A stretch of 64,000 bases of DNA from Bdellovibrionales bacterium (GCA_027317865.1 DAHVQG010000004.1:64001-128000), one strand, 5' to 3'; shown: positions 7,054 through 27,525, counted from the stretch's first letter. Made by a program: numbers and translations. The notes: generated from the sequence alone by a model not told the origin.

Positions 7054-7080
7054 GAAATGCCAAACCGAAAAGGGGGGATT

Positions 7081-7779
7081 ATGAAAACATTAGTACTCGG
7101 GCTTTTACTCGCGTTAGCTTATCAGCCCTGCGCTCAAGCGCTACAGTTTCAATTAGCACCGCCGTGCGGACGACACGCGTCTGTTGGCGAAGTTTGTTCA
7201 CTGCCAATTCTTGCATTGCATCCGACGCAATTTACACTTGGGATGATCGAAGTCCGAGCCCGCGCAGCGCAATTCGAAAGAAAAAAACCGGCGAAATTCG
7301 CGAAATACATGAAAAAGCATAACGTACCGGTCGTCATCGGTCCGGACGGCGTCTTTTATATGACCGATCACCACCACTTGTCCCGCGCGCTATATGAAGA
7401 CGGCGTCCGAACAGTCAATGCGCAAGTGACACACGACTGGTCGAATTTGAACAGGGCGCAGTTTTGGTCCCGGATGGAGTCAACAAAGCAAGTTTATCTC
7501 TATGAAGATGGCCGCGGACCGCTTTCACCGAGCGAACTTCCGAATAACATCTTACAGTTAAAAAATGACTACTACCGCAGTTTAGCTTGGGCCGTGTGTT
7601 CCCAAACGAAAGCATTCAAAAAAGAAAAGGTCCTCTTTTTTAGTTTTTATTGGGCCAATTTTTTCAGAGCGCGCATACCGGATTCACTCGTTCGCAATCA
7701 TTTTGAACAGGCGGTACAGTTAGGCGCTCAATTAGCACGTTCACCAGCGGCAAAAGGAATGCCCGGCTATCGCGGCTAA
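7081..7779 (+). CDS. Exported ParB-like nuclease-fold protein (ParBc_2 type)
   Basis: Signal peptide MKTLVLGLLLALAYQPCAQA; LHPTQFTLG, VPVVIGPDG..YMTDHHHL, LKNDYYRSLAW motifs. Confidence 0.8.
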   Translation: MKTLVLGLLLALAYQPCAQALQFQLAPPCGRHASVGEVCSLPILALHPTQFTLGMIEVRARAAQFERKKPAKFAKYMKKHNVPVVIGPDGVFYMTDHHHLSRALYEDGVRTVNAQVTHDWSNLNRAQFWSRMESTKQVYLYEDGRGPLSPSELPNNILQLKNDYYRSLAWAVCSQTKAFKKEKVLFFSFYWANFFRARIPDSLVRNHFEQAVQLGAQLARSPAAKGMPGYRG

Positions 7780-7792
7780 GATTTTCAAGCCA

Positions 7793-8878
7793 TCAGGGTT
7801 CAAAGCAAAACCAGCCACCGACGGGGAAATGGTCGGTGGCACCACTTCCGGTTACCGGGTCAAAAGCAAGCGGTTTGCCACTTGGCGAAATAAACTCGTG
7901 GTGCCGAAGCGGCCCAAAGCTCCCTTGCTGCAAATATTTTAAAAAGTTTTGCGAAACAATGATCTGATCAAAGACTTCCCAACGCTTGCCGGCTTCAAAA
8001 AAACAGGTGGCCCGCTCTTTGAGTAAGCTTTCGGCATAATCATCTATTGTTTGCTTGTTTGCGCCTGGGTGTGCGGCCTTAAAATCGGCCATCCGTTTTT
8101 TCAAATTGAATGACTCTTCCTCTAAGTTACGCAATTTCTCAGTCATGCTTAATCCAAGACCGGCTTTCATTTCCGGGCTGTCGGGTTCCGCATTGAAATC
8201 ACCCATAATGATAATATTCGCAATCGGATTTCGTGACAAAATTTGATCGGTGACTTTTTTTAAAAACCGCGCCGCTTGAAACCGCTGCAACGCCGACCAG
8301 TCACCCAGTTTTTTACTTGGCCAATGGTTTACAAAGACAATCAGCTCTTCATCGTTTGGTAACCTTAAATGATATTCGACGATGGGTCTGGTCAAAAGAC
8401 CGCCTGAAAATTCTTTGCGCCCAAACCGCTTACGTTGCCGCCATAACGGATCGTCTTCGCTCCAATAGATATGCGCAACGGGCCCCTTAAGCATTGGAAA
8501 CCGTGAAATTAGCCCCAAGTTATTGCCGCGATCGTCCGCCTGAGGAGCAACGCCGTGACTGGCAAGACCCGATTTTTTCATCAAAGGATGCCGTACAAGT
8601 TGTGTCAAAAAATCACCGTCAACTTCGACGACTGCCAATAAATCGGGCCCTTTGTTGTCGTTCATTGAAGAAACCAATTTGGCTACCGCTTCAACTTTTT
8701 TTATTTCACTCTGTTTGTTCGGAAGAAATTTCTTATCGTGAATCAATTTAAACGCGTTCATCGTCGCTAGAAGATGCCCGCAAGAATAATTTGCGGATTT
8801 CTGCCGAGTCACCCCAATCGCATATGCGGGAACAAAAAAAATCGCACCCGCAAGCAGCAGGCGTTTCAACTTAGTCAT
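7793..8878 (-). CDS. Exported endonuclease/exonuclease/phosphatase (EEP) family protein
   Basis: LAVVEV, VNHWPSK, MGDFN, FDQI, TDHFPV catalytic motifs; signal peptide from ATG 8878, which overlaps the upstream stop (ATGACTAA); N-terminal CGHLL. Confidence 0.88.
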   Translation of the reverse strand: MTKLKRLLLAGAIFFVPAYAIGVTRQKSANYSCGHLLATMNAFKLIHDKKFLPNKQSEIKKVEAVAKLVSSMNDNKGPDLLAVVEVDGDFLTQLVRHPLMKKSGLASHGVAPQADDRGNNLGLISRFPMLKGPVAHIYWSEDDPLWRQRKRFGRKEFSGGLLTRPIVEYHLRLPNDEELIVFVNHWPSKKLGDWSALQRFQAARFLKKVTDQILSRNPIANIIIMGDFNAEPDSPEMKAGLGLSMTEKLRNLEEESFNLKKRMADFKAAHPGANKQTIDDYAESLLKERATCFFEAGKRWEVFDQIIVSQNFLKYLQQGSFGPLRHHEFISPSGKPLAFDPVTGSGATDHFPVGGWFCFEP

Positions 8879-10379
8879 CGTAACCCGAAAGCAAATCATC
8901 GCAATTCAGCTCCAACTGAGCCGACATTTTTTCAAATAATTTACGCTCACCGCTATTTAACGAATTAAAAAGATATCGCCGCCCCAACGGGCTGGAGTCA
9001 ACCGCCCGCAAAAGGTTTTTAAAAAAATCACGATTATTCAGTAGCGATTGACCCTTAAATTTTTCACCTCGAAATATTCCGATCAATCGCTTGAAATTAT
9101 ATTCAGTGGCGGTGCCCCTTTCGGCCATCCCCAATAGATCCTTAAATAAATCAAGCGCTGTCATCGGGGGATAAAGGCTTTTTGAAATTCGTTTTTTCGC
9201 GACCTGCATATATATCGCCATCGAATCAGTTGAATAATCTTTACTTGAAGATGACGTTTCGTCCTTATTACGCCAGTGCGGCACTTCGCCCCAACCATCC
9301 GAAAAAGAGGAAAATAGTGTTCGCCTTTCTTTAAACAGATCGGGAGCGGGAACTTGATCTTTAGGTATAAAAGTCAACGATTCGGTTCGTTTAAGTGGAA
9401 ATTCATACCCAAGTTCCAGCGCCGCTTTCTTAACTAAATCGATAAAGGTTGGGTCTCTCACAATTTTCATCACGTCGAACATTTCGCCGAGAATAGTTTC
9501 ATGCGCGGATGGCACATCTGCCCCCGGCGTTGTGCTTACTCGGCCATCCGCCGTGCGATGAAACGGACCAAACATTTCATGCCATCCGGTGGTATATGTG
9601 AGCGATGACGTTACCTTAGGCAAATAAAACGGATGAACCGGGCCTTCGGTCGTTATGTGACTGCGCTCCGATTCTTTCAATTGTTCAATATTAAGCGATG
9701 GCCTAATCACGTTGCTTTCAGTGCCGCCGCTCATGCCTATGCCAACGAAATTAACGCGATCGTAAAGCTTCTTTAAATCGCCTCCTTGAAGCGAATAACT
9801 TTGGTAAGCGGCGCGAATCAACTGACGCGATTGACTCGTTGAACGCCAACTCGTTACATCAAAGACGACAAACGGATAATCGTCGTTCATCTTTTCGAAA
9901 CTCAGCCCATTGCTACGTAAAAAATCAAACAAAAGCTCTCTGTCGTTTTGTGACGACTCTGTTGTCGCATTATAATAGTGTGGAAAACTCGGCCCGCTGG
10001 CATCCAGGCGCCTCACGCGGTTCTGTTGACCGATTGATTGATAGAAACCATCAAGCAAATCGGTCAGAAGCGCAACGTCGCGCCCAAGTCCAAGATATGT
10101 CGCACCCGGAAAAGCTCTTTCCATTGACGCAATGATGATTGCCGCATTTTGCGGTGAAAGCGAAACACCGTTATAAAACGGATTTATTGACGGCCATGTA
10201 TTGATTCCATATTTTGCGTCCATCGCAGATACAAACTCGTTTACAGTCGGACGGTTTCTTTGCTCTAAAAGCATTTGAATTGAATCGGCCGACCTCACGT
10301 TCATGCCGGCGGCCCGGCGGCCGTTGAAAACGCCAACTGTAAAAACGCAAATAAACGCCAAGCTTATCCAATACTTCAT
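8871..10379 (-). CDS. Exported hypothetical protein, 'GRD' family paralog 3 (possible PRTase-like fold)
   Basis: Shares RPT.E, FPG.T...GRD, FY...GQ..RV.RL, D..S...Q.R and LGYEFP with 16785..18401 and 21594..23198; C-terminal CDDLL. Confidence 0.8.
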   Translation of the reverse strand: MKYWISLAFICVFTVGVFNGRRAAGMNVRSADSIQMLLEQRNRPTVNEFVSAMDAKYGINTWPSINPFYNGVSLSPQNAAIIIASMERAFPGATYLGLGRDVALLTDLLDGFYQSIGQQNRVRRLDASGPSFPHYYNATTESSQNDRELLFDFLRSNGLSFEKMNDDYPFVVFDVTSWRSTSQSRQLIRAAYQSYSLQGGDLKKLYDRVNFVGIGMSGGTESNVIRPSLNIEQLKESERSHITTEGPVHPFYLPKVTSSLTYTTGWHEMFGPFHRTADGRVSTTPGADVPSAHETILGEMFDVMKIVRDPTFIDLVKKAALELGYEFPLKRTESLTFIPKDQVPAPDLFKERRTLFSSFSDGWGEVPHWRNKDETSSSSKDYSTDSMAIYMQVAKKRISKSLYPPMTALDLFKDLLGMAERGTATEYNFKRLIGIFRGEKFKGQSLLNNRDFFKNLLRAVDSSPLGRRYLFNSLNSGERKLFEKMSAQLELNCDDLLSGYDD

Positions 10380-12442
10380 ATACCTTCCAAATTCTCGTGA
10401 TCAATAAGCAAATCAGCGCAACTGTGATTTTCAAAAATATTTTTGTATTGTTTGTATAGCGTCTTCCGCGCATCGGGCTGCAATCGTTCGATAGCTTGCC
10501 GGAGTTGCTCGCGGTTAGGATGCAATTCCAAAAACTTTGCAAATGAAACTGCCACAAAATCCGACATACGCCGTTCATACTTCGGCGTCGGATCTTCTTG
10601 GTCGAACTGTATAAGCCTTACATATTCGCTTGGAGTACGGACATAAGCCCTCATGACCTTTTTCATGTATTCAATAAACGGGGGACCGTGGCGCACCAGC
10701 GTTTTCAGTTCGTTCAATTGGTCAAAGCCGGGATGGCTCGCCATGATTAAATCCAAATTGTCTACCACAATTTGGGCAATCTGAGGTTTATTGAGCGTTC
10801 GGACAACCATCATATTTTTCACATATGAAATAAATGTCTCAGGTGAAGTAAGCGCTTGGCTCCATTCGTAATTTGCCACAAGAGGTATCAGAAGCGCCGA
10901 ATACTTTTCTTTTCGTAAATCATTTTCATCATTGTCGAGATAGTCCTTAATATTCAAATATTCGCTTTCGTTTAACGTAGTGAAAAGATTGTACCGGCGA
11001 ATTACGTAGTCGATAAAATCCGGATCTGCATTCCGAGCAATCAGCGCCGTTAAATTTTCTCGCGAAATATTCAAAGTTTCTGGAATGAGACTTAAACTAT
11101 TCCGGTTATACACGCTGATGATTCCCGGCATAAGCACGCTAAAATCTTTATTTTGAACCGAACGGGGATTAACCTCAAAACCAACCCAAATTTCGCCCGG
11201 TTTTCGAACAGGCGTCTCAGATAAAATAATACCGGGAGGACCCCGCATTGGATTCGTTTTTTGGTCGGGCAGCAACAAGTTAGGAGCGTTGAGTTTACCC
11301 ATACGAAGACGCTCGAATGTTTCAAAGTCATAAATTTTCATATAGGCCGTTTTTATTCCAAGTTCGCCCGCTGTCGCACCCTGTACGCCGCCCAAAGAAA
11401 ACGCCGGCAATGGCTTTTGCTCCATTAACCATGCAAGCGAATCCGTATCACTGCGCGACCCAAACGTAGAAAGGTCTTTGCGCACACCCATTCTGTTTAA
11501 ATCAGCCCATGCGGCGTTTACGTCTAAGGCGTTGTTGATAAGCTTATTTGCGTTTTTTTCGATCCAGCGCAAAGCTCCGTGATATTGCGGATCTGTCTTA
11601 ATTTTTGAAAATGGTGCCGTTCGCAAGATCCTTTCAACAACTTTGAGGCTATTGCGATCGGGTTTAAGGCCATACTCAAATACTTTTATTAAAAACCTCA
11701 ATGCACTGATGACAACAGGATTGCCGGACGAAGATCGCGAAGTGGAATGATGAAGGCCGGTATTAAAATAGGTGATTTCTCCACGGGCGACGTCGTGAAA
11801 AAACAATCCTTCATCGCGGCGGAATTTTCTCAAATCTTGAATTCGTGATCGCTCACCCGTTGGGTCAGTAATCTCAATAAGGCCTGTGGATCCCGAGTCT
11901 GTATTTTGATTCTTAAAATCTTCATTGTTTAAAATGTCCGCCTTGAAACCGATGGAATACTGGAGCGGGCGCACTTCCCAAACCGAAATAGTTTTACCAC
12001 CCGTTGTCTTTTTGTAGGGGAATTTCATCTCAAGGTCATGCTGAAGTTCTTCCGCATATTGAGGTTTCGCGTCAACCACAATATCGATGTCCTGATTAAA
12101 ATGAAATATATTGACGATGCTAAAATCCAGCCGATCAGCGGAGAAGTCCCGCGAACCGAGTTCATATTGTTCCGCCCAACGGCAATAAACGGCAAAGGCC
12201 TCCGCCGCTCCACCAAAAAGATAAGCCCGTATGCCTCTTTTTTCCGCCCATTCCTTTATAAATTGAAACTCTTTTACACGGTCCAAATCAGTCTGGATTA
12301 GCTTTTCAAACTCGAGATACGATCCGTTTTGCCTCGAAATGGAAAGCATTTCGGGGGGATTTTCGTTCGCCGACGCGAACGAAGGCCCGCATATAAGTAC
12401 AAGTGCGAAAACTGGCAAAAGAAATAGATTTAAAACCTTCAT
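10376..12442 (-). CDS. Exported Pol-beta superfamily nucleotidyltransferase-like protein (CCA/poly(A) polymerase-like head)
   Basis: Signal peptide; YLFGG and QDIDIVV (hGG + DxD); later PVVISALRF resembling the DPLRxLR region; C-terminal CADLL. Confidence 0.65.
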   Translation of the reverse strand: MKVLNLFLLPVFALVLICGPSFASANENPPEMLSISRQNGSYLEFEKLIQTDLDRVKEFQFIKEWAEKRGIRAYLFGGAAEAFAVYCRWAEQYELGSRDFSADRLDFSIVNIFHFNQDIDIVVDAKPQYAEELQHDLEMKFPYKKTTGGKTISVWEVRPLQYSIGFKADILNNEDFKNQNTDSGSTGLIEITDPTGERSRIQDLRKFRRDEGLFFHDVARGEITYFNTGLHHSTSRSSSGNPVVISALRFLIKVFEYGLKPDRNSLKVVERILRTAPFSKIKTDPQYHGALRWIEKNANKLINNALDVNAAWADLNRMGVRKDLSTFGSRSDTDSLAWLMEQKPLPAFSLGGVQGATAGELGIKTAYMKIYDFETFERLRMGKLNAPNLLLPDQKTNPMRGPPGIILSETPVRKPGEIWVGFEVNPRSVQNKDFSVLMPGIISVYNRNSLSLIPETLNISRENLTALIARNADPDFIDYVIRRYNLFTTLNESEYLNIKDYLDNDENDLRKEKYSALLIPLVANYEWSQALTSPETFISYVKNMMVVRTLNKPQIAQIVVDNLDLIMASHPGFDQLNELKTLVRHGPPFIEYMKKVMRAYVRTPSEYVRLIQFDQEDPTPKYERRMSDFVAVSFAKFLELHPNREQLRQAIERLQPDARKTLYKQYKNIFENHSCADLLIDHENLEGI

Positions 12443-12459
12443 CCTTTAATTCGCAACCT

Positions 12460-15400
12460 TCATTCCTCTTTTGTGTTTGCGCTAACGGGTTGACGTATCA
12501 TTTTCGATAATAGAGTTGCGCACGAAACCGGCTTTGCGTTTTTTGCGCGCGCCTGCCAATCTTCGTACGTCCGAACCGGCTGTTGTGCGCTCTTTAATTT
12601 TTCTTCAATTTTGTGTTCAAGATCCTGAGCTCGCGATTCGCTTATGTCCCCTTTACGCATCAGCTCGGCGACTATCGCGCGAACAAGCGGCCATTTTTCT
12701 TTAAGAACGGCGATCGCAATTTCATGAGCGCGCGAAATCATTTGGCTTTGCTTTTGTTCAAACAATTGCCTTTGTCGCGAAGTTGCAAGAATTGGATTGC
12801 CTTTTTTATCGACTTGAACTCCTACAAGGTCGGTATCCATTCCCCATGTGGTGAGATATTCGGTTGTTACATATCTCATCGATTTCAAATCGTTTTGCCA
12901 TCCAATGTCGGCAGGTAAGCCCGCAAGCTCTTGAGCCACTCGACCGCCCCAAGCTTTAACAAGAAATGCCATCGTCTTATCGTAGTTGAAATTCGTATCC
13001 GCCCCGGGGATCGGCTTGTAATGCGCGTAGCCTTTTGCCGTTATCATTTTGCCGGTGAAATCTTTGAGGCGAGAATAGCGGATCGTAATATAATTCAAGA
13101 TCTCATTGGTTAATTCGGGATCATTTAAAACCGCGTGGCCAGCTTCATGGTAAGCCACTGTCTCAGCGTGTTTACCTAGCGGAATTTCGACTTCGGGCGC
13201 GAATTCCGTAAAGTCTTTTTGTATATAATCGAGTTTTTTACCATCCTTGTACACTTCAACGCCGACTAGAACCTTACGCGGCTCCGATTTTTTCTGGCGG
13301 TACGGTTTATTCGTCAAATTATCTTGAACATCGAGTTTGAATACATACGAAGACAAATCGTGCCCGATGTCGCCAGTCTTCATCAGTGCGGCTCCAAGAA
13401 GCGCACCCAGCCGGTTATCAAGCGCATTTCGAACCGATCGGCCACCTGTATCCGGGGTAAAAAATGCTCGGGTAAAATTCTCAACAAATTTAGGGCCGTA
13501 TTCAACAATCAGGCCCACGTGCTGTTCTTGCAGTCTGCGAATTTGATTTTTAAGTTCCTTTTCTGTGACACCTTTCATTTCGGTGGAAAGAAGCGGTTTC
13601 GCCAGTATGACGTCGGCTAGGCGCCCGAGAAACGCTTCGGGAATCCCATTTTTCACAAGATTCGCGCGAATGATCTCTTTCTTATTATTTTCGTTGTACG
13701 CATCCATTCTCAATTTATCGGTACTGAGACTCGTGAAGAATTCCTGCAAATCGTTGCCGGTGAATTCAAAAATATGATTTCGAAGATCGTATGTTCGGCC
13801 TGTTGCTGTCGACGTCCATTTGCCTTCGTCTAAAATTTCGTAGAAGTATTGCTTAAGCAGCTCTTCTTTGCGTTTGATGTCACCCCCGCCCATGTTAGAA
13901 AATTCATCGAAAACAATCACCCCGCCGTTTGGAGTGTTCATGAGCGCTCGCTCGAATTTTCCGATTTTGTGAGAGTCGACGTACCCGGCCGGTGAATTGA
14001 ATACGTCGTTCAAACGGCCCTCGAAATTAACATTGCCGAGTGGAATGACTTCAACTCGATCGGGTGAACCAAAAAGCGCCTCCGCAATTGCGCGGCCCAA
14101 TTCCGTCTTACCGACGCCCGTTGGGCCCACAATGGCAAACGATACGGCGGTTTTTCGACCCACGTCCGCATATTTCGACAATACGGCATCCGCTGCGCTT
14201 CGAACCGCTTCGTCTTGCCCGATAATCCGCGTCTTCATTCGTTCGGGCATCGATTGGATTTTTTCTAAAATTTCTTTGTCTTGAAGAGGATTAAAAAATT
14301 TCTGCTCGGGAGCGGCAACATCCAGGCTCTCGCTGTTGGTCCCATTTGTTACGCTCAATTTCACATCGGATGAGTTTTCGTTTTTGACTAAACCGATTTT
14401 AACTGTCCCATCCCGAGGGATATCCCAGTGGGCGCGTGCCTCGCGAATGGCAACTTTAAGATACGAATCGACCTGTTTGGCAACTTGCCGGTAGCCGTCC
14501 GTAACCGAAAATCCGGTCAGCGCTAAATGTTCAACCACAGCCGGCGAGACGTCGAGATGGAGATGATATTCAAACTCCATTTCGTTTTGCAATTTTTCAG
14601 TTTCACGGCGGGCAACCTCAATCGCGCCTTCTCGTGAACCCGGGTTGGCAATCGCCCACTCGTCGATTCGGCCCAAAACTTCCGGAGGTAATTGAAATTT
14701 GTCTTCGCCATCCGTCTTTTCGCGAAACAGTGCCGCGACGTCTTTTGATTTAAAACCTGCAAGTCGGCGATCGATTTCAGCCTGACTCCACATCGTAATA
14801 TTGTCCGGAAAAACGAGCTTCGCTCCCCGATTACTCGTGAGGATAACGATGTGACGGTTTGCCCGGCGAACTTTGCCATCGCCGCATGTAATTTCACCTT
14901 TATCAAAAAACTCCATTAACCGCTTCCACACATCAGGATGCATTTTTTCGGCTTCATTAATTACGATCACGCCGCCCATCTTGCCGCGAGAGGGGTCATC
15001 AAGGTATTCGCACAAAATACCGGACCTCTTATCTGAAGTTACCGTGCCGTTCGGTGAACCCACCAAAGTATTCACCGACAAGTCGCCGGTCTGATAGGTA
15101 TTGCCGTCTATAATGAGCGCTCTTCTTTTTGAACCGAATACTTTTTCAGCCAACGTTTCGGCAATTAAAGTCTTGCCGGTACCGGTAGTCCCGATAATCG
15201 CCATGACTTGCGGGCGCCTCGGGGTTCCGATTAATAAATTACCGACGCGTTCGACAAGCTTGTGAACCAAAGATTTCTGTTCAACAACAACGGAATCGAT
15301 CTCTTTTTCTTTCTCAGCTAAATATTCTTGAAAAGCCTTACCGTCGTGAGGGTTCGCCGGCAGCCCCGTGATCTCTTTTGCGTAATCGTAGATTTCGCTA

Positions 15401-16812: not shown

Positions 16813-18401
16813 GATTCCCCTTTTAGGTTTTGCTTAACCCTTTCAAATAACCTTATTTTTTTCAGCGTCCAGTAGAGCGTCTTTTTCTGGTCGATCTCGT
16901 AAATTTTTTTCTTCAAGTTCGGAACCGTTCTAAAAAGTTTTGCGTATGCTTCGAGAAACGACGACGTAATTTTAAAGTCGCTACTAAGGGCGGCAATCAC
17001 CATGTCGGCCACATCGGCTTGAGTGGCCCACGCGCTCGAATAAGCATTGGATAGGTAATTTAAAAAGCGCGGCATTATTGCGCTAAGCTTGCTCACTGAA
17101 CTGTGTCGTGCCCGTATATGTTGCCAGGTACTCTGAAGGTAATTGAAATTGACGCCGTTTTGTCCCGCCCCATTGCTTTGTGCAACTTGCATAGCGGTTT
17201 CGTTCACAGCTCGCGCTTTAGGCGTGAAATTTGAAAAATCAAACCCGGGAGCGTTCGCCTTTTTCACCATATCGTCATTGTGTTGCAAATCCTGCCTGAT
17301 GATATCGGTGAGGTTCGTCGCGGCAGATGACGGCTCACTCGCCTCAGGTGACGGTCTTTTAAGTGGGAATTCATAACCAAGCTTTTTAGCAGCCTCGTAA
17401 ACTTGATGGTGAAATGTCTCAGAGTTGACTGCGTTCCAAATTTCTTTTTGCATCCATAATATATTTTCGTGCGTTCTCAGATCCGTAATATTTCCGGGAG
17501 TTGCCTTTAACTTTCCGTCTATTGAAACAATCGGCCCGAATGACTCTGTCCACGCCCCGGAAAAATGCTCGTATCCAGCCTCGTTCGATTTGTCTTGGTT
17601 TTCTGAAAAGCCCGTAAGTTTGAACTCGTCCCCGAAATTATGGGGCCGATCTCCGGTCAGGCTAAACTGGATTTCAAGATCACGCGATACGCTCTTGATC
17701 GCTGAAGACGGTACTGGAGCTGATCTAAACGTGCTCACAAACAACGCAAACATGTTTAGCTTTTTAATTAGATCCGCCGGTTTGCCTTTAAGATCATTGG
17801 CGTAATGGGAATACAAGGCGTTCAAAAACATTCGCCCTTGCTGTCCGCCTCCGGTTGAAACGGTATCGACAAACACGTACGGTTCGCGACGTTTGATATC
17901 CTTGAAACTAAAACCGTGTTCCAAAACAAAATGAACCAATGTTTGCGGAGTAACGCCGTTGAAACTGGCCTTGCTTACCATCAACCGCACAACCCGGTTT
18001 TGTTGCCCAATCGAGAGGTAAAATCCTTCGAGCATGTCCGCAATTGCCTGCGAATCGCGGCCGATAAATGCCCATGTCGCACCCGGAAATGTTTTTTCCA
18101 TCGCCGCGATCAGAGTTGGCCCATGCTTAAGCATCACTTTAACCCAATGCTCAGGCTGGTAAACGTGCGCATTTTTGACCTGAATAACGCTCGGTACATC
18201 TTCAAATTCAGGCAACTGGTTTAAAAAAGGTACTGATTCAGCCATCGTCGGGCGCGACGGCATTTCAAGCAGTCGAACAATATCCGGAGGAATATTCACG
18301 GCCCAACTGTTGTCTTGTTGCTGTCCTCGCGAAGTCGCGGACACCGAAACCGTCAGCAAAAAAGTAAAACTATAAATTAAAACTTGTGACGCAATTCTCA
18401 T
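16785..18401 (-). CDS. Exported hypothetical protein, 'GRD' family paralog 2 (possible PRTase-like fold)
   Basis: Signal peptide; FIGRDS, VFVDTVSTGGG (PRPP-loop-like), LGYEFP; C-terminal CAEVI. Confidence 0.8.
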   Translation of the reverse strand: MRIASQVLIYSFTFLLTVSVSATSRGQQQDNSWAVNIPPDIVRLLEMPSRPTMAESVPFLNQLPEFEDVPSVIQVKNAHVYQPEHWVKVMLKHGPTLIAAMEKTFPGATWAFIGRDSQAIADMLEGFYLSIGQQNRVVRLMVSKASFNGVTPQTLVHFVLEHGFSFKDIKRREPYVFVDTVSTGGGQQGRMFLNALYSHYANDLKGKPADLIKKLNMFALFVSTFRSAPVPSSAIKSVSRDLEIQFSLTGDRPHNFGDEFKLTGFSENQDKSNEAGYEHFSGAWTESFGPIVSIDGKLKATPGNITDLRTHENILWMQKEIWNAVNSETFHHQVYEAAKKLGYEFPLKRPSPEASEPSSAATNLTDIIRQDLQHNDDMVKKANAPGFDFSNFTPKARAVNETAMQVAQSNGAGQNGVNFNYLQSTWQHIRARHSSVSKLSAIMPRFLNYLSNAYSSAWATQADVADMVIAALSSDFKITSSFLEAYAKLFRTVPNLKKKIYEIDQKKTLYWTLKKIRLFERVKQNLKGESCAEVINES

Positions 18402-20158
18402 TCTTCAGCATCCATCGGTTCAAATTCATCTTTGGGGAATTCATGTCTGTCAGACCTTGGGTTCACCAATGATCTTTCAATCTCAACCTTCTTTTGGCTT
18501 TCTAGCTCTTCAACAACGGACGCGACCTTCTCGGCGCTATCGGCAACCAGTATGTGGCTCTTGATTTCTGGCGAAAGCGAACTGTTCGCTATAAATTTAA
18601 GTAAATACGAGTAGTACTTTGAATTTTGAATCACGACGTACGGGGGCCGCTTCGAGTATTGAATCGCCACGAGCGTCGCCGCGAGCTCGCGCATGGTTCC
18701 GTTACCGCCGGGCTCAATAATTACTAAATCACGATTGTTTACTAGCAACGGTATCCGTGAATGGTAATCAAGCGTCGGAATCGTGTGCGATTGAACTTCG
18801 CTTCTTGTATCCGTCTCGTAAGGCAGCGCTCCACGACCGACGCGGGGTATTCCAATTGAAGGTCCACCCGCATCGTAGGCCCCCATGTTTGCCGCGTACA
18901 TAACTCCACCAGCACCTCCGGTAACCACCGGAATGCCGCGGCTCCCGAACCAATATGCCGTTTGATACGTGTCGGGGGCGACTTCTTCGTCTAAACGGCT
19001 CGACCCGAAAACAGCGGCACCGCGAACGCCAGAAAGAACTCTTACACCTGAACGAGTAACGTCCACGTGCTCAAGAAGAGCAATGATTTCACCAAGACTC
19101 ATATTATTTGGCGAAATGCTAAATGCTTTTAGATTAACTGGATCTTTTACGGCCGGGAAAACCGAATACCGTACTGATTCCAAAACGCGAGTGGCGTTGA
19201 CGATTGCAGATATCGAGTTTGTGATGCCAAGCCGCCGGTAGGATATTCCAAAACCCCTTTTTTCAGATTCCAGTAGACTCGACCAATCGTGAAGGCGATT
19301 TTTTGTATTACCGTCGAGGTCGAGAACAAATCCCGCATCATTATTGAGGAGTGCGGCCATCCCTAACGTCGAGTCCGGGCTTACAATTGCCGGCAAGGCA
19401 TGTGAAACGACTTCAAGAAATGAATACGAATTATTGAAATGTAAAACAATGCCAGGACGGCCTCTTTCATTTCTTGCCCCGGCTTCGGGTAACATTGAAA
19501 TTCCGATGCCGCAGGGACCCGCCGCTCGAGCAATTATTTCCGCCGCTTTGTTGTCGGCATCGTAGATAATTGTATAGTTTTTTGCCACGAGCTGAGCGAC
19601 AAGCCGTTCGTACTTCGTGGCTTCGGTGTCTGTTGGCGCACGATCGGACGAACCAACGAGAACCGAAACCAGTTTCGAGCGCGGCAACCTGTACACTTCT
19701 AATATTTGTTTGTAGTCTTCAAAAAATCCTCTATCTTCGGGTACAGCCAACCGCTCTTTTAGAACCGGGATCAACGACAACCGGTTTTTTTCTTTTAATT
19801 CTTCGATCAACCCCTCGAGTTTTTTTATTTTAAATTTGAGGTCAGCTATCTTCTTTTTGACTTCCGCGCGTTTTTCCGGTGAACGGGCTGCTGGTGATTT
19901 TTCGGCGTATTCGAGGTAAAAACCCCAAAAATCGCTTGCATCACTTGACTCAAGTTTGTTTTTTAATGACCTAATCTCGCGTTCCATTTCGCGAAGTTTT
20001 TCTATTGCTTCGACGAGTTGCGGGCTGCGGTATTCGGCAAGTTTAAAGGCCTGGGCTTTTTCACCTTTTAAGACACGGTCGCAAGGCTGCCCGTAGGCGC
20101 TAGAAATCGCGAAGGTTGAAACCACAAAAGCGCATAAAAACAAGCGGCGCGAAATCAT
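18398..20158 (-). CDS. Exported LOG/SLOG family protein (NMP phosphoribohydrolase-like), tandem SLOG domains
   Basis: AAVFGSSR, TGGAGGVM.AAN.GA, SIGIP, PGGNGTMREL; signal peptide followed by CDRVL. Confidence 0.85.
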   Translation of the reverse strand: MISRRLFLCAFVVSTFAISSAYGQPCDRVLKGEKAQAFKLAEYRSPQLVEAIEKLREMEREIRSLKNKLESSDASDFWGFYLEYAEKSPAARSPEKRAEVKKKIADLKFKIKKLEGLIEELKEKNRLSLIPVLKERLAVPEDRGFFEDYKQILEVYRLPRSKLVSVLVGSSDRAPTDTEATKYERLVAQLVAKNYTIIYDADNKAAEIIARAAGPCGIGISMLPEAGARNERGRPGIVLHFNNSYSFLEVVSHALPAIVSPDSTLGMAALLNNDAGFVLDLDGNTKNRLHDWSSLLESEKRGFGISYRRLGITNSISAIVNATRVLESVRYSVFPAVKDPVNLKAFSISPNNMSLGEIIALLEHVDVTRSGVRVLSGVRGAAVFGSSRLDEEVAPDTYQTAYWFGSRGIPVVTGGAGGVMYAANMGAYDAGGPSIGIPRVGRGALPYETDTRSEVQSHTIPTLDYHSRIPLLVNNRDLVIIEPGGNGTMRELAATLVAIQYSKRPPYVVIQNSKYYSYLLKFIANSSLSPEIKSHILVADSAEKVASVVEELESQKKVEIERSLVNPRSDRHEFPKDEFEPMDAEE

Positions 20159-21588
20159 TGAGAACCTTTCAGTATCGCCTGACAGTCGCCAGCGGATTTA
20201 TCATGTGGTTTAACAATAAGATCTTCGACAGCACGGCCGAGTTCCTCACCGATCGGGACAATGACGAGTTTGGAATTCTGTTTTACGACCGCATTTGATA
20301 CGGGATACGAATCCGTCACAACCAGTTGATCAATAGATGCACTATTGAGCGCTTTACCGCCGTCGCCCGCGAGGTGTGTAACGACCGCAATAACTTTAGT
20401 CGCCCCTGCTTTCTTCAAATAATCAGCCACGTCCGCTAATGTGCCCCCGGTTGACGTTTCATCGTCTACAATAGCGACAACTTTGCCCGCCGGGCTCGGT
20501 CCGCTGAATCCGTAAAATTTTGTTTGAGCAGTGAGTGGATCGCGCTGTTTATTGGCGACAGCAACAGGCAACTTCAGCATGTCCGCATAAAGCGTGGCAT
20601 CTTTTTGAAATCCCGTATCCGGTGAAACAATCATTTCAACATCGGCATTTCGCAAGTACGCGCACAATGTATTAAGGCCCAAAACATTAAAGCTCGGAAT
20701 ATCAAAAAAGCCCTGTGATTGCGGAGCGTGTGCCCGAGCAAATTCGATAGCCTCTGTGCCAACACTTTCAATTAAGTCGGCAATCAGACGGCCAATCACC
20801 GTTACACCTTTTTGATCCGCCTTATCCGATCGCGCCCACGGCAACGGCGTTACCCACGTTACGGCGGCTCCATCTCTTGTCATCTGCGCAACTCGCGCCA
20901 AGGCGGCAAAAAAGGTTTCACTTTTGGGGATTACGACTGGCCTCACAAAAATTATTTGCGCGCCCTTTACCGCTCCTCTCGGGAGAGAACCTGGATTATA
21001 AACCGGCAAATTCAGAACACGCCCCATATCGCGAGCAATCGAATCGTGGGAGTCTTGAAGAATAAAACTGTGTGTCAGATGATGCCTGCCGGGCCAAACA
21101 CGACGGATTCTAATGGTTCGCGGATGGTTCCCGTTTTCAACAAACTTGGTCGCACCCGCTATGCCGATAAGCGATTCCACCGGTAAGGCAAGCGAACCGT
21201 TTGCGGTCGTGACCCGTATTTTTGAAATCGAAGTATTAAGAAAAGCAACAATCTCTCGTGCACCGAGCGTTCTTGCCGTTCGAATCTTAATCAAAGCCTC
21301 CATAAACATTTGGGGCGTCATTTCATCTGGAATCAAAATCCCGACTCGTTTGCCAGTAAGATTGGTCTGCACGCGCACGAAAGTGTCGCCGTTAGAAAAC
21401 TCTTGAGTTTTTTCTTCAATCATCCGGCAGCCAGGGTGTGACGTGCAGAATCGATTAGCAGCTTCTGAAAAATTACGTACAGAGAATAGTAATACGCTTC
21501 GATTGCGGGCGCTGGCGTAACCCGAGCCGACGAGCATAAGGGTCGTCATGCTCAAAAATGCAATTTTATTTAAACCCAACCCTTTCAT
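20155..21588 (-). CDS. Exported ribose-phosphate pyrophosphokinase-like protein with duplicated N-terminal domain
   Basis: FSNGDTFVRV, PWARSDK, HAPQSQGFFDIP, VSPDTG, KQR, IVDDETSTGGTL, VTH; signal peptide; ATG 21588 with GAGG RBS (GTG 21597 alternative); C-terminal CQAIL. Confidence 0.87.
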   Translation of the reverse strand: MKGLGLNKIAFLSMTTLMLVGSGYASARNRSVLLFSVRNFSEAANRFCTSHPGCRMIEEKTQEFSNGDTFVRVQTNLTGKRVGILIPDEMTPQMFMEALIKIRTARTLGAREIVAFLNTSISKIRVTTANGSLALPVESLIGIAGATKFVENGNHPRTIRIRRVWPGRHHLTHSFILQDSHDSIARDMGRVLNLPVYNPGSLPRGAVKGAQIIFVRPVVIPKSETFFAALARVAQMTRDGAAVTWVTPLPWARSDKADQKGVTVIGRLIADLIESVGTEAIEFARAHAPQSQGFFDIPSFNVLGLNTLCAYLRNADVEMIVSPDTGFQKDATLYADMLKLPVAVANKQRDPLTAQTKFYGFSGPSPAGKVVAIVDDETSTGGTLADVADYLKKAGATKVIAVVTHLAGDGGKALNSASIDQLVVTDSYPVSNAVVKQNSKLVIVPIGEELGRAVEDLIVKPHDKSAGDCQAILKGSQ

Positions 21589-21593
21589 CGTCC

Positions 21594-23198
21594 TCACCCT
21601 GCAGGTTTCAAAACGTCACTACACGTGGCTTCTAACATTTTACTTAACCGCTCATATGCCTTCGATCCGAGCGGACCGGATTTATGTTCGTTATTTAAAA
21701 AATATTCCCTCTTTGAGTTCCAAACTTCTTCGAAGGTGCGGCTGTTATGGTAGAGATGCGCCAAGCCGCTTTCAAATTTCTCACGCTCGCTCACGGCCGC
21801 GCCATTAACCGTGTCTTCACTTGCAATTGGATAGTTCGCAAGTAAACGCTTGATTAGGCGGCGAAGATCGCGCGCGCTAATTTTGCCATTTTCAAATGCA
21901 TGTACCGAACCCGCTAAAAACATGAGCGCAATTTGACCCGAATTTTTGTCAGTGCGGCCGTAAACATCCGATTTCATAAGAGACAAAATCTTCATTCCGT
22001 TTTCAGTCATCGGTTCGGCATCTTCACCAACAGGGCCAAGCTCTGAAATTATATCTTTGAACGATCTCTGCGCTTCAGCTATACGCTGTTCGGCAATTTC
22101 GTCGGCCGTTAGCATTCGAATGTCCGTTCGTTCGCGCGCGCGCCCCTCTGGGAACTCATACCCCAGTTCTCTAGCCGCTTTTTGCACTTCACTATAAAAC
22201 TCTTTTGTCGAAACAATTCCTATGATGTCGTACAGACCACCTAAAATTGTTTGGCGTATTTCAACGCTGGACAGACCTCCAGGTGGAGCGAAAACGCGCC
22301 CGTCTTGCATGCGCTGAAGTTGAAGGAATGGGCCGTGCCACTCTGAGCTGTAAGCAAGTTGGGCGCCATCGATTTTCAAAATTCGATCAGGACCGGTTGG
22401 CTGAGCATTCGATGTTTTAATGTACTTTTCGATTTTTTTTACAGTTTCATAATTTTGCGATCCAATTATCGGGTAGTTCGAATTTTTTATGTCAATGACA
22501 TTGACCTTCATCAAAAGGTTCGTGAGCGGCTTTTGTGTGCCTTGGTACACACTATAAAACGCACCAATATATTGGCGGCTTTGGCTCGTAGGGCTGTAAC
22601 TGGTCGCATCGATAATAATAAACGGCGGGTCTTGATCCACAGACTGCAGATGAAGTCCGTTAGTCGCCAAAAAATCGACCAAAATATCGGGCGTGCTGCC
22701 AACCAAAGATTGCCCGCTTGCATTGAGCCGCACGACGCGATGGTTTTGCCCGTGAGCTCGGTAAAAAGCGTCGACCATATCGGCAATCAATGCGGAGTCG
22801 CGACCCAAAAACGCATACGTTCCGCCCGGGTAGGCCGCTTCAAGACTAGCAATAATTTTTGGCCCGTCAGCCTTGGTTACAGCCACGGCTTGCGAACGTT
22901 CACCGGCATTTCTAAAGGGATTTTTTCTTGGCCACGGCGTTAACGCATTTTCGATTTCGGCAATGGTCGGGCGAGATTGCATGTTAAGCAATTCATTGAT
23001 TTTTTCATCACGAGCCTTTTTAGCTAATTGCTCCTGAACTTGCGGTTCGCCCCCATCGCTCAAATTAGTTGTCGTTATAGTCCCAAAGGCTCCGTGCCAG
23101 GACGTCCGGCTATTCGCCGCACGAACCTTCGCCGACACCGAAGCTGCTACAATTAAACCGGCGATCAACATTGATAACGCCTTACCCATTTTCCCCAC
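21594..23198 (-). CDS. Exported hypothetical protein, 'GRD' family paralog 1 (possible PRTase-like fold)
   Basis: Signal peptide; YPGGTYAFLGRDS, IIIDATSYSPTSQSR, LGYEFP; C-terminal CSDVL. Confidence 0.8.
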   Translation of the reverse strand: MGKMGKALSMLIAGLIVAASVSAKVRAANSRTSWHGAFGTITTTNLSDGGEPQVQEQLAKKARDEKINELLNMQSRPTIAEIENALTPWPRKNPFRNAGERSQAVAVTKADGPKIIASLEAAYPGGTYAFLGRDSALIADMVDAFYRAHGQNHRVVRLNASGQSLVGSTPDILVDFLATNGLHLQSVDQDPPFIIIDATSYSPTSQSRQYIGAFYSVYQGTQKPLTNLLMKVNVIDIKNSNYPIIGSQNYETVKKIEKYIKTSNAQPTGPDRILKIDGAQLAYSSEWHGPFLQLQRMQDGRVFAPPGGLSSVEIRQTILGGLYDIIGIVSTKEFYSEVQKAARELGYEFPEGRARERTDIRMLTADEIAEQRIAEAQRSFKDIISELGPVGEDAEPMTENGMKILSLMKSDVYGRTDKNSGQIALMFLAGSVHAFENGKISARDLRRLIKRLLANYPIASEDTVNGAAVSEREKFESGLAHLYHNSRTFEEVWNSKREYFLNNEHKSGPLGSKAYERLSKMLEATCSDVLKPAG

Positions 23199-23201
23199 TG
23201 G

Positions 23202-25613
23202 TTATTCCCTCAACCTTTCAGTTTTAACGCTTTTCGCGCCGTTATCTAAATATTTCGTATTTATATCACTTAACGCATTTCGAATGTCGTCCGCCGAATT
23301 CACCAAATATATCCTCGACAAAACCGATGCTGGTAACTTCGATTCTTTAAGATAGTTGGCAAGCGATCCGTAGAAATCGTTGGCCACAAAAATGATGCTT
23401 TGGCTCTTATTGAGGCCCGATGCGAAATTGACAAAAGCTGTCGCCAGTTCTTGAAGCGTCCCCTTACCGCCCGGCATGACCACGACAACGTTGTTCATAT
23501 AGAGCAACAACGGGATACGCGTTCGATAGTCAGTCGTTGATAAGGTCAGATTATGGACATCTGTCGCTGCCGATTTTTCACGCCATAGACTGCCACTCTC
23601 AAGCGGAATACCGATCGAAATGCCACCCGAGTTTATGGCGGCATCGTTGGCAATTCTCATAAACCCGTCCGCTCCACCAGTCGCAATGGCCAAACCGCTT
23701 TGCGCGATGGTTTTCGAGATGCTGTAAACCATCGAATCATATTTTGACTCTCGGGTACTTGAACCGAAAACGACCGCGCCCCCGGGAGTTTTTTGGCGTA
23801 ACGCCTGAACGGCTTCGGTCATTTCACGCTGATAATTCGAAATTTGTGAAAGTTGGTGGCGATCTAATTTCGCGATAAATTGGCCGTCATTTAATCGAAC
23901 CGGTTCCGTTTCTGCGAAGACAATTCCCGGCGTATCGCTATATTTTTCATAATCACTATATTTGCTATATTTTGATTTTTTACCGCGAAGACTTTCAATC
24001 GCTTCGTTGTTTGTTTTAAATTTTTGGATGCTAAGAAAGTGGTAATTGTCTCGAATCCCAAACGAGTAACCGTCAATGTTGTCAGTCCATTTGCGTAAGC
24101 CACCTAAGATGGGAAAATCAGAATTGTTGATAGTGCCGTCAATGTCCTTTTGAAGAAGCAATCCAAACCCGGTGACCGAGTCAGCCGTCATGATTCGATT
24201 GTTCGAATATGCAAACGCCTTCATTCTTAGGTACGGATTGGGTATCGATAAAATCTGGCTATTGTGGAGCATTGTTTCCGAACCGGCGGTCACTTCGCTC
24301 GTAATACCGACTCCACGGTCACCGACGGCTTCTGCGATAAGCGGCGCTGTCGGCACGTCGGCATCAAAAAAAACTATATAACCGTTCTTCGCCGCCGATC
24401 GAGCCAGCTCCACCGCTTCATTGGCATCGGCGTTGTTTGCGGCGCCCGTCAGAAGTGTCAGAGTTTTTGAAGTTCCGTCGCAGATAGCTTGCACCCAACG
24501 ATAATTCAGCATTTCACGGAGGTAGCCGCTATTTGCGTTTTCTTGTTTCAGTGCCGATATAAAATTGGCTTGAAGTTCGGCCGTCTGCTTTAACTCTCGT
24601 TCACGTTCCGCAATAAGCCGTTTTCGCTCGTTTTCTCTTTGTTTGGCGGCTATCTCTTCGTAATTTTCTTGAAGTTCGCTCAATGCGACTCCCTTCGGAT
24701 AATCGCTCTCTTTTAGAAATTTGAAATTCCAGTCAGCGGTACGCACGAGACGCGGCTTACCGTCATCGTCGAAAAATGAAACCACGTAGTCAGAGTTAAT
24801 TAATGAATCCCTTGCCCGGCCATAAACCAATGCGATCCGTTTCGACTTCGTCTTTATGCCTGAAACGGATGAGCCCGTAACCGGATCACGAAAGAACGAA
24901 TTTGAACTCAATACAGCAGCAGCCACTGCATGTTCCGGCTTTAATCCCTCGGTTTTGCGAATCACGGTGTTGATTGCCAACAACTCCTTCGTCGGAGATT
25001 CAACTTTTGTCGACGGAATCGGCACTTCCGCGGCAGCTAGCGATTCTGTTTTATTTTCTAAAGCATTGAGTTTCGGCGATTCTCGTCGTAACAATACCGA
25101 CGCCGCGACCAACGTCGAGTGGCCTTTGATTCGTGAAAATTCCGTTCCGTGTCTTTTAAAAGCAGAATCGTTGTAAAACTCTAATTCTTCTGGTTCAACC
25201 CAAGCGATTCGACGGCCATGAGTTGTCCATCCAGAAATTGCGACGGATGTTCCGCCTAACTTAAAATCATTGTTTTTAACCCCATAGACATAAATATCGT
25301 TCAACGGCGAAAGCACGACGTTACCGCTTAAGGCAATTGGCGAGGTCAATTTGGCGAGAGCGATCGGTTTCGTTTCGGCACTAACCTCAGCTATGTCCGT
25401 TGTGAGTGCTTTGATCGCTTTTTTAAAAGTCGGCTCTGTGGTATTTGTCCCACGCAGAATCAATTCGCAAACTGTAGACTTCTTTTCACTTTTCCCATTT
25501 TTCTTTGTGGCCGCGTGGGCCGAATTAAAGCTGAACAATATCAACAATGAAACAAGCAAAAGGGCTTGAGAATTACAGTCGTGAGACTTGAGCTTTAATG
25601 GCGCCCCCTTCAT
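23202..25613 (-). CDS. Exported LOG/SLOG family protein, large, with unknown N-domain and coiled coil
   Basis: AVVFGSS, TGGADGFM, SIGIP, PGGKGTLQEL; signal peptide ending AHA then CELIL; strong RBS (AAGGTGAGGGG). Confidence 0.85.
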   Translation of the reverse strand: MKGAPLKLKSHDCNSQALLLVSLLILFSFNSAHAATKKNGKSEKKSTVCELILRGTNTTEPTFKKAIKALTTDIAEVSAETKPIALAKLTSPIALSGNVVLSPLNDIYVYGVKNNDFKLGGTSVAISGWTTHGRRIAWVEPEELEFYNDSAFKRHGTEFSRIKGHSTLVAASVLLRRESPKLNALENKTESLAAAEVPIPSTKVESPTKELLAINTVIRKTEGLKPEHAVAAAVLSSNSFFRDPVTGSSVSGIKTKSKRIALVYGRARDSLINSDYVVSFFDDDGKPRLVRTADWNFKFLKESDYPKGVALSELQENYEEIAAKQRENERKRLIAERERELKQTAELQANFISALKQENANSGYLREMLNYRWVQAICDGTSKTLTLLTGAANNADANEAVELARSAAKNGYIVFFDADVPTAPLIAEAVGDRGVGITSEVTAGSETMLHNSQILSIPNPYLRMKAFAYSNNRIMTADSVTGFGLLLQKDIDGTINNSDFPILGGLRKWTDNIDGYSFGIRDNYHFLSIQKFKTNNEAIESLRGKKSKYSKYSDYEKYSDTPGIVFAETEPVRLNDGQFIAKLDRHQLSQISNYQREMTEAVQALRQKTPGGAVVFGSSTRESKYDSMVYSISKTIAQSGLAIATGGADGFMRIANDAAINSGGISIGIPLESGSLWREKSAATDVHNLTLSTTDYRTRIPLLLYMNNVVVVMPGGKGTLQELATAFVNFASGLNKSQSIIFVANDFYGSLANYLKESKLPASVLSRIYLVNSADDIRNALSDINTKYLDNGAKSVKTERLRE

Positions 25614-25986
25614 TGCCGACCCCTCACCTTCTTTGGAAGCTGTCGACTTACACGAAATGTCAAAATTTGGTCAAGAATTCAAAACATGAAGCGGTAATAC
25701 CGTAAAAAACTTTCTCAAATTTATGAAATTAATACGGTGATGTTGAACTTTAATCGGAATTGTTCTAGCTGCGGCGAACTTGACTGGATTTTGATATTTT
25801 TGCGCAAAATGAAAAACTGCTTTTAATATCTCATCTGCAACTGCTATGTCTGTTTGACAGTGGTAAGACATCGTCGCCGCCGCGGATTAACAGATTGATT
25901 GCAACCCGGCGGCGATTTTTTCGCAAATTCGCGCCCTACCCCAAAAAATAACAAGCCAGAAAAGACCCAATAGGGGTTTGTTGGTT

Positions 25987-27504: not shown

Positions 27505-27525
27505 TTCTGGGCTCCTTTCATTCAA

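Follow-up and report, generated by a model that had tools for sequence, protein, structure and literature searches.

A nine-gene cassette of a Bdellovibrionales bacterium encodes putatively exported, cytoplasm-type proteins that share a terminal cysteine tag

What would a bacterium do with ATP-dependent enzymes that carry signals for leaving its cytoplasm? This question is raised by nine genes, g1 to g9, on the minus strand (positions 7793-25613) of a 64,000-nucleotide stretch of DNA from a Bdellovibrionales bacterium (GCA_027317865.1 DAHVQG010000004.1:64001-128000); this whole stretch is called the window below. An earlier reading, made from the sequence alone, had proposed that the nine proteins are exported and then reach a place where ATP is available, in the simplest case the cytoplasm of a prey or host cell of a Bdellovibrionota-like predator. 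Our computational analysis supports this interpretation in part: export and the link to Bdellovibrionota are supported, while delivery to prey stays an inference. The analysis also adds a feature that was absent from the sequence-only reading, a short motif around a cysteine close to one end of every protein. A five-residue tag common to nine putatively exported proteins and hundreds of relatives provides a testable handle on the route by which the proteins of Bdellovibrio-like predators cross the inner membrane of the victim.

Export signals and a shared cysteine tag

The block consists of nine co-directional open reading frames (ORFs), with no competing long ORF inside: g1 (23202-25613; 803 amino acids), g2 (21594-23198; 534), g3 (20155-21597; 480), g4 (18398-20158; 586), g5 (16785-18401; 538), g6 (12460-16812; 1450), g7 (10376-12442; 688), g8 (8871-10379; 502) and g9 (7793-8899; 368, or 361 from its second ATG). 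The junctions from g1 to g9 measure +3, -4, -4, -4, -28, +17, -4 and -29 nt, the last becoming -8 nt if g9 begins at the second ATG (codon 8), and both the coordinates and the tight joining agree with what had been described before. The start codons are fixed by the stop/start overlaps, and starting further downstream in frame would cut into the hydrophobic N-terminal segments. This speaks against true starts lying downstream of these segments, which the sequence-only reading had named as an outcome that would speak against export.

As evidence for export we used rule-of-thumb features of signal peptides together with their conservation in homologues. The rule asks for a basic n-region, a hydrophobic h-region of about 7-15 residues, an uncharged stretch shorter than about 20 residues and small residues at positions -3 and -1. 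All nine N-termini, as had been claimed, have signal-peptide-like starts by this rule, with one to five basic residues followed by an uncharged core of 13-19 residues (19 in g6), as in Sec-type signals; in g1 the segment spans residues 1-34. The putative cleavage sites have A, V, S or G at -3 and A or G at -1 in 8/9 proteins, and F and G in g8. The same crude rule flags 15/40 other ORFs of the window, membrane proteins included, and at that rate nine such starts in a row would arise by chance with a probability of about 0.375^9 = 1.5e-4. Signal-peptide-like starts are kept in 134/149 relatives of g7, in the g6 relatives P0154-P0156, L048 and L052, and in P0002, a relative of the paralogous proteins g2, g5 and g8 (family B). 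In the AlphaFold model of g7, residues 1-33 remain outside the fold. As a separate observation, g4 starts with MISRRLFL (20143-20158, residues 1-8), in which the SRRxFL stretch resembles the twin-arginine (Tat) consensus; none of the other eight proteins has such a stretch.

The tag itself has the form Cys-x-x-[LIV]-[LI] and is present on 9/9 cassette proteins, compared with 0/40 other window ORFs when the same terminal zones are considered; given the frequency of the motif elsewhere in the window, its presence on nine of nine would be expected by chance with a probability of about 4e-13. Three proteins carry it at the N-terminus, with the Cys 3-15 residues past the putative cleavage site: g1 (CELIL, residues 49-53, 25455-25469; 15 residues past the site), g4 (CDRVL, residues 26-30, 20069-20083; 3 residues) and g9 (CGHLL, residues 40-44, 8768-8782; 13 residues). 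The other six carry it at the C-terminus, with the Cys 7-19 residues from the end: g2 (CSDVL, residues 526-530, 21609-21623; Cys 8 residues from the end), g3 (CQAIL, residues 472-476, 20170-20184), g5 (CAEVI, residues 531-535, 16797-16811), g6 (CATLL, residues 1431-1435, 12508-12522), g7 (CADLL, residues 675-679, 10406-10420) and g8 (CDDLL, residues 493-497, 8889-8903), all encoded on the minus strand. The tails of 7-19 residues that follow the Cys in these six are hydrophilic and contain no transmembrane segment, and in g2, g5 and g8 the tag Cys is the sole Cys of the mature protein. The shared tag adds independent evidence that the nine proteins have a common fate. The coding DNA of the g8 tag overlaps the start of g9, such that the 29 nt at 8871-8899 encode the tag and tail of g8 and, in another frame, the first residues of g9.

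Converging on g9 is a gene for a ParB-like nuclease of 240 amino acids (7057-7779, plus strand; ParBc_2, 176 bits), whose signal-peptide-like start is followed by YQPCAQAL, resembling YGQPCDRVL of g4. Its motif has A-L instead of [LIV][LI] and stands within an uncharged stretch, and was hence left outside the tag count; from these features, the nuclease is a possible tenth tagged member. Four further window ORFs with signal-peptide-like starts, at 53897-54961 (minus), 55119-55775 (minus), 60960-62204 (plus) and 62875-63795 (minus), are all untagged; one is a trypsin-like protease and three are without a Pfam match.

We compared the tag with terminal signals that are already known. The lipoprotein lipobox ([LVI][ASTVI][GAS]C) was rejected, as the N-terminal tag Cys is preceded by STV in g1, GQP in g4 and NYS in g9; a lipobox-like FGAC occurs in g6 only, at residues 27-30. 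The CaaX box was rejected as well, since it has its Cys exactly fourth from the C-terminus, and the tag Cys either stands 7-19 residues before the C-terminus or is N-terminal; the nearest to the end among the relatives examined has four residues after it (CRSLF in L052), one beyond CaaX. The tripartite C-terminal sorting signals (MYXO-CTERM and kin), which are described as a Cys motif, a transmembrane helix and an Arg cluster (10.1101/2023.06.07.544157), likewise are short terminal motifs with an invariant Cys on exported proteins, in multiple copies per genome. They do not fit either: neither a hydrophobic helix nor an Arg cluster follows the tag Cys, and the tag is N-terminal in 3/9 proteins. 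Bdellovibrio is not mentioned in the preprint (0 occurrences). NCBIfam sorting-domain models gave no match in g1-g9.

Enzyme families and their relatives

By its domains, g6 joins a triple-AAA+ Clp/Hsp100-type ATPase to a zinc protease domain, M41, of the FtsH type. Pfam matches AAA_2 (131 bits), AAA (73.8 bits), ClpB_D2-small (33.7 bits) and Peptidase_M41 (49.3 bits; cut-off 29.9), and the best PDB sequence matches are ClpC, ClpB and ClpA (1e-39 to 1e-27). The Walker A motifs at residues 249, 541 and 896 are intact in all three modules, the Walker B motifs read DE, NE and DE, and the zinc motif HEAGH is at residue 1222. The three relatives P0154-P0156 are 50-56% identical to g6 and keep the ATPase and HEAGH motifs (the first-module Walker B was not found by our script in P0155), and all of them have both a signal peptide and a tail of the form C[DE]SWLL; the relatives at L048 and L052 keep signal peptide and tag. 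In the second module of g6 the Walker B motif is VIVINE (residues 615-620; 14950-14967), with N replacing D, as also in P0154-P0156, and this module may be a binding-only one. Membership of a known equivalog family was rejected for ClpV, ClpB and ClpA (NCBIfam scores of 255.8 against 884.95, 248.7 against 1232.1 and 225.8 against 993.15) and for FtsH (TIGR01241, 47 against a cut-off of 600), though the M41 domain itself passes. Compared with the Hsp100/Clp proteins (ClpA, ClpB, ClpC, ClpV) and FtsH, g6 thus shares AAA_2, AAA, ClpB_D2-small and M41 with HEAGH. It differs from Hsp100/Clp in having three P-loop modules instead of two, a fused M41 domain and a signal peptide, and from FtsH in lacking the FtsH-type membrane pair.

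The protein g7 has a polymerase-beta-type nucleotidyltransferase domain at about residues 45-470, followed by a helical C-terminal part, and belongs to a family with 524 representative relatives in which GG and DxD are invariant. Its AF2 model has a mean pLDDT of 85, with residues 20-33 and 672-688 below 50, and its top Foldseek matches are class II CCA-adding enzymes at E 7e-4 (5hc9, 4wby, 3h3a, 1vfg, 3aql), with probabilities up to 1.0, template modelling (TM) scores of 0.20-0.24 by query and 0.30-0.38 by target, and about 14% identity. Membership of the class II CCA-adding/poly(A) polymerase family was rejected, as Pfam gave no match for g7 (E <= 0.01), PolyA_pol included, and the likeness is one of fold only; compared with that family, g7 also differs by its signal peptide, its tag and, among its relatives, many fused C-terminal extensions. 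The domain assignments of the sequence-only reading stand for the Clp-type AAA+, phosphoribosyl pyrophosphate (PRPP) synthetase and LOG proteins, whereas the CCA/poly(A)-type assignment of g7 is weakly suggested by the modelled fold and the GG...DxD motif.

Two paralogues (BLASTP, 9e-38), g1 and g4, are LOG/SLOG proteins. In g1 the domain is C-terminal, with Pfam matching LDcluster4 (53.5 bits) and Lysine_decarbox (37.6 bits) at residues 615-777; in g4, Pfam matches PF18306 (51.4 bits) and PF03641 (47.9 bits). Both have the LOG motifs GGxGxxM and PGGxGTxxE, and in an alignment of g4 with PDB 1wek and LOG enzymes, GGxGGVM and PGGxGTxxEL are conserved. Membership is supported by PF03641, with 37.6 bits for g1 and 47.9 for g4 against a cut-off of 27, while the TIGR00730 scores of 56.2 and 48.2 are below its cut-off of 96.35. 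PpnN is a nucleotide N-glycosidase, and g1 and g4 share the motifs of LOG/PpnN-type N-glycosidases, differing from them by signal peptides, tags and long N-terminal parts without an assignment; for the N-terminal region of g1, the ESM Atlas offered only weak SH3-like neighbours with TM below 0.5. The PRPP synthetase g3 matches TIGR01251 (ribose-phosphate diphosphokinase) with 152.1 bits against a cut-off of 113, and aligned to human PRPS2 it conserves ARxDK, HAxQxQGFFDIP and VDDxxxTGGT. It shares these PRS motifs with class I PRPP synthetases and differs by a signal peptide, a tag and an extra N-terminal half-domain. With the PRS motifs of g3 intact, as are the three Walker A motifs, the Walker B motifs and the HEAGH motif of g6, the earlier claim of ATP-using enzymes is supported. 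The protein g9 is a predicted nuclease or phosphatase with the endonuclease/exonuclease/phosphatase (EEP) fold (Exo_endo_phos_3, PF19580, 78 bits against a cut-off of 27), with no PDB sequence match.

Family B, nearly an orphan, comprises the paralogues g2, g5 and g8; g2 has no Pfam or NCBIfam match. Among 5.8 billion proteins (word-indexed), its only relatives found are P0001 (99% identical) and P0002 (33%), the outcome being the same with a single sequence and with a four-sequence profile, and in 185,579 species genomes 573 pattern matches yielded 0 confirmed relatives. There was no feature match in the ESM Atlas, where the structure neighbours are unnamed Actinomycetota clusters (TM 0.41 by query), and the family profile had no match among PDB sequences. 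The AF2 model of g2 has a pLDDT of 57.5, and Foldseek against the PDB gave nothing at E <= 0.001 (best 8a0m_D, E 0.03). At rank 16 stands the PRPP-dependent ribofuranosyltransferase 7shg, from which we take, as a lead only, that family B might use PRPP.

In order to see where such proteins occur, we scanned one genome per species with a profile of the g7 family, and examined the best 80 of 183 confirmed stretches, which correspond to 76 loci. All 76 listed loci are from Bdellovibrionota-type metagenome-assembled genomes (MAGs), which bears out the link to this phylum made by the sequence-only reading; their titles name Bdellovibrionia, Bdellovibrionota, Bdellovibrionales, Bacteriovoracaceae, Pseudobdellovibrionaceae, Oligoflexia and older 'Deltaproteobacteria' or 'Proteobacteria' bins. 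The genome from which the window comes is itself not among these matches. Single MAGs hold many copies (17 loci in CAZCBS01 and 16 in JBILOD01 among the best 80 of 183 stretches), and g7-like genes can stand in tandem, four in L005 (2865-13166) and five in L069 (24-15411), joined by stop/start overlaps and each with its own signal peptide and tag. The search for syntenic clusters suggested earlier had a mixed outcome, with the g6-g7 pair recurring in these MAGs and the full nine-gene cluster not being found. A g6-like gene adjoins a g7-like gene in L048 and lies near one in L052, and in L070 a partial g6-like gene is divergent to a g7-like gene. In L055, a single ORF of 2327 amino acids (4751-11731, plus strand) reads AAA-AAA-AAA-M41, then a g7-like nucleotidyltransferase, then an FGE-sulfatase domain; by its domain order, this fusion is a Rosetta-stone link between g6 and g7.

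The tag is found in these relatives as well. Of the 149 representative relatives of g7, 122 contain a Cys within their last 35 residues; the Cys density of the final 30 residues is 2.89%, compared with 0.12% in the body (24-fold), and position +4 from the tail Cys is L, F, I or V in 73%. Among the g7-like ORFs of the genome loci that have complete C-termini, the last Cys is at most 30 residues from the end in 64/83, and most of those without it terminate in an FGE-sulfatase domain instead. A subset of g7-like proteins (L022, L039, L040, L041, L044, L046, L048, L049) ends in G[FL]R[LMI][VAL]R without a C-terminal Cys, and Pfam matched a C-terminal FGE-sulfatase domain in the two proteins that were scanned, the one of L048 and the fused one of L055. 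In L048 the g7-like protein with this ending carries CADLL directly after the signal peptide instead of a C-terminal tag, and the g6-like protein encoded just upstream ends in CADLL. The tag thus shifts to the N-terminus in L048, where another domain occupies the C-terminus.

The form of the tag differs from genome to genome. The g6 relatives end in C[DE]SWLL (P0154-P0156) or CRGLF and the family-B relative in CGKYL. Each MAG keeps to a single flavour, and flavours vary from MAG to MAG: CAZCBS01 and JBJMMA01 have C-[IVL]-x3-L-x3-L, in which the Cys stands 11 from the end, JAZKJB01 has C-x-x-L-F and CALLAU01 has C-x-x-[VI]-L. This is the pattern expected of a motif that is read by a genome-encoded partner. 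Other tagged proteins with signal peptides in the loci include a Macro protein, a nucleoside 2-deoxyribosyltransferase, a 1677-residue ABC1 kinase and a HEAT-repeat protein (L004); these, too, are of cytoplasm type.

Where the proteins may act

Because the periplasm is established to lack a pool of ATP, enzymes such as the AAA+ protease, the PRPP synthetase and the nucleotidyltransferase would be useless there. We therefore favour the reading that the nine proteins are exported and act in a compartment with ATP and nucleic acids, most simply the cytoplasm of the victim of a Bdellovibrionota-like predator, and we consider this, with delivery as its inferred step, to have about an even chance of being right. 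The proteins would leave by the Sec route, marked by a common short tag on a flexible end, and act together. Once inside, g9, and perhaps also the neighbouring ParB-like nuclease, would cut nucleic acids, g7 would add nucleotides to RNA 3' ends or another acceptor, and g6 would unfold and degrade proteins at the expense of the victim's ATP. The LOG-type N-glycosidases g1 and g4 could split nucleoside monophosphates into base and ribose 5-phosphate, and g3 could convert ribose 5-phosphate and ATP into PRPP and AMP; running as a loop, these enzymes would have the net reaction ATP + H2O -> adenine + PRPP and would destroy the adenylate pool. The pairing of a LOG-type nucleosidase with a PRPP synthetase thereby suggests a concrete killing chemistry.

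Several observations weigh against this reading. The signal-peptide rule is crude and picks up membrane proteins too (they are among the 15/40 other ORFs flagged), and g1 (+4) and g3 (+3) are basic over their first 12 mature residues, which is atypical and disfavours Sec export. The second AAA+ module of g6 has N instead of D in its Walker B motif, and the metabolic loop is drawn from family chemistry rather than substrate data. Over the ORFs of the g7 loci the loose tag motif is unspecific, occurring in 59/339 signal-peptide-like ORFs compared with 25/319 others (a first, crude count gave 30/255 and 22/403). No gene for tag-recognising machinery was found in the loci, where no family recurs beside the g7-like genes: no cluster of neighbours is present in more than 7 loci, except the g7 family itself (110 members, 76 loci). 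The closest g7 relative among the genome matches listed is only 38% identical, the 76 loci contain no relative of g1-g5, g8 or g9, and within these loci the g6-g7 pair alone recurs, the full nine-gene cassette being found nowhere else.

The signal peptides and the tag fit equally well with a different destination, in which the exported proteins act outside an intact cytoplasm, in the bdelloplast lumen, at the cell surface, in the medium or in vesicles, once a breach of the victim's membrane has let out ATP, nucleotides and proteins. The tag would then tether or assemble the proteins in the envelope, for example by disulfides, for which a single unpaired Cys on a flexible end is well suited in the oxidising periplasm. 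Secretion into the bdelloplast is described for known Bdellovibrio enzymes (PMC12622784, PMC11656739). However, as is generally understood, sustained millimolar ATP is required by a PRPP synthetase and by an AAA+ protease with three modules, which a diluted leak is unlikely to supply, and the Walker motifs kept across the g6 family argue for real ATP use. We regard this destination as unlikely, though still worth serious consideration.

The ATP-containing compartment could also be the cytosol of a eukaryote, if the bacterium lived with protists, intracellularly or as an epibiont, and its proteins were host-cytosol effectors. Such a life would be in keeping with the ankyrin repeats of a g7-like protein (L070), the HEAT repeats of a tagged one (L004), and the large, multi-copy and variable effector-like families of each genome. 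The tag is not a CaaX box, though, the window has no type III, IV or VI secretion genes, and the listed relatives are all from MAGs of Bdellovibrionota type, a phylum described as predators of bacteria (PMC8067016). A eukaryotic host thus seems to us improbable.

A further alternative denies export altogether: with uncleaved hydrophobic N-termini, or with other true starts, the proteins might form a membrane-bound complex for nucleotide metabolism and proteolysis that faces the producer's own cytoplasm. Basic residues follow the hydrophobic segment in g1, g3, g8 and g9, the uncharged core of g6 is 19 residues long, and FtsH-type proteases are normally membrane-anchored with cytoplasmic domains. 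Against this, most cores are 13-18 residues long and combine with basic N-regions and A, G or S at -1 and -3 into the geometry of a signal peptide, the overlapping junctions fix starts for which any downstream replacement would cut the segments, the g7 model leaves residues 1-33 outside its fold, and strong Cys depletion with one terminal Cys is generally a trait of exported rather than cytoplasmic proteins. We hold anchoring to be quite improbable. Finally, a cytoplasmic anti-phage or nucleotide-signalling conflict system, which the mix of SLOG, PRTase-like, nucleotidyltransferase, nuclease and AAA+ protease domains resembles and which finds weak PADLOC matches (PsyrA for g1 and g4, best E 5e-6 for g4; ShosT for g3, 1.4e-4; ClpB-like PDC-M37B/DolB for g6), receives almost no credence from us, as the PADLOC-DB 2.0 matches reflect generic domain similarity and no specific system component, all nine proteins have export signals, and the region is not a mobile island, with no att repeat and a G+C content at third codon positions (GC3) equal to that of the flanks.

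Returning to delivery into the victim's cytoplasm, the tag could serve, in a second step that follows Sec export, be it sorting, tethering or release, as a handle for recognition or for thiol chemistry. Its position at either terminus, on a flexible end of low model confidence and often as the sole Cys, fits a recognition peptide or thiol handle rather than a processing site. More speculatively, and with a rather low probability in our estimate, the tag may be an undescribed second-step targeting signal of uncultured Bdellovibrionota that routes a large, genome-specific repertoire of cytoplasm-type enzymes from the predator periplasm to the victim cytoplasm; the repertoire would include an ATP-driven unfoldase-protease, nucleotide-destroying enzymes, kinases and nucleotidyltransferases. 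Thiol chemistry could provide the mechanism, disulfides tethering the proteins while they are in the oxidising periplasm and letting go in the reducing cytoplasm. Alternatively, the exported AAA+-M41 machine could itself recognise the tag as a terminal handle, an option that is possible by analogy with AAA+ unfoldases, which read terminal degrons, and with the Plasmodium PTEX, which threads exported proteins.

Set beside the Sec-exported predation enzymes of B. bacteriovorus (nucleases, peptidoglycan enzymes and proteases), the cassette proteins have in common an N-terminal Sec-type signal and, in the proposed reading, action on the victim. To our knowledge, those known enzymes are ATP-independent hydrolases. 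The cassette cargo would add an AAA+ protease, a PRPP synthetase and a nucleotidyltransferase, all Cys-tagged. NanoLuc reaches the supernatant of B. bacteriovorus with no more than a Sec signal peptide (PMC12622784), and one example of the known enzymes is secreted into the prey periplasm (PMC11656739). PTEX offers a partial parallel, its HSP101 being described (PMC7355975, PMC6550532) as a secreted ClpB-like AAA+ protein that works at the boundary with the invaded cell rather than in the cytoplasm of its producer, and the HSP101 chains 6e10 and 6e11 are among the PDB matches of g6. PTEX is eukaryotic, however, without a protease domain and with pore and adaptor partners, and no pore gene was found at the cassette, so the likeness would be topological only.

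In the literature searched, which includes few subscription-journal papers, the tag, a secreted bacterial AAA+ protease and this cassette are all undescribed, and no PADLOC system and no NCBIfam sorting domain matched, in agreement with the earlier statement that the cassette is not a described system. The individual parts are, from their domain matches, new members of known enzyme families, family B excepted. At the level of the system, putatively exported ATP-dependent enzymes with an undescribed terminal Cys tag match no described system among those tested. ATP-dependent machines with Sec signals, such as the triple-AAA+ protease and the PRPP synthetase predicted from this locus, are unusual for bacteria. 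If the proposed delivery is true, the proteins would represent a new class of effectors, probably with a new sorting step, and the tag would allow the effectors of uncultured predators to be found by a sequence rule.

Genomic setting

Pfam finds no transporter, regulator or mobility domain in g1-g9, as had been noted before. Between g1 and the next gene upstream lies an untranslated spacer of 373 nt (25614-25986, minus strand), which is likely the promoter region of the operon. Scans for consensus promoters and terminators gave no excess over shuffled sequences (20 compared with 23.8, and 28 compared with 26.8), so that no promoter was assigned and the scans are uninformative on a single transcript, either way.

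Directly upstream of the spacer, and downstream of pilR, is a tRNA-Arg(CCT) gene (25987-26063, minus strand). We considered a genomic island at this tRNA and rejected it: no repeat of at least 12 nt of the tRNA-Arg occurs elsewhere in the window, and there is no integrase domain. Moreover, GC3 in the cassette is 0.472 compared with 0.486 +/- 0.035 in the rest of the window, that is, without a shift in composition; together with the lack of a tRNA repeat, this makes the cassette unlike a recent island. The tRNA ends a run of type IV pilus genes (26089-33250, minus strand), in transcription order pilB-pilT-pilC-pilS-pilR. B. bacteriovorus HD100 may have the same order, though nothing in the literature searched (Bd1509-Bd1512) confirmed this. 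The remaining window holds core envelope and housekeeping genes, among them lipid A genes, BamA, Skp, LolCD-like genes and RF2.

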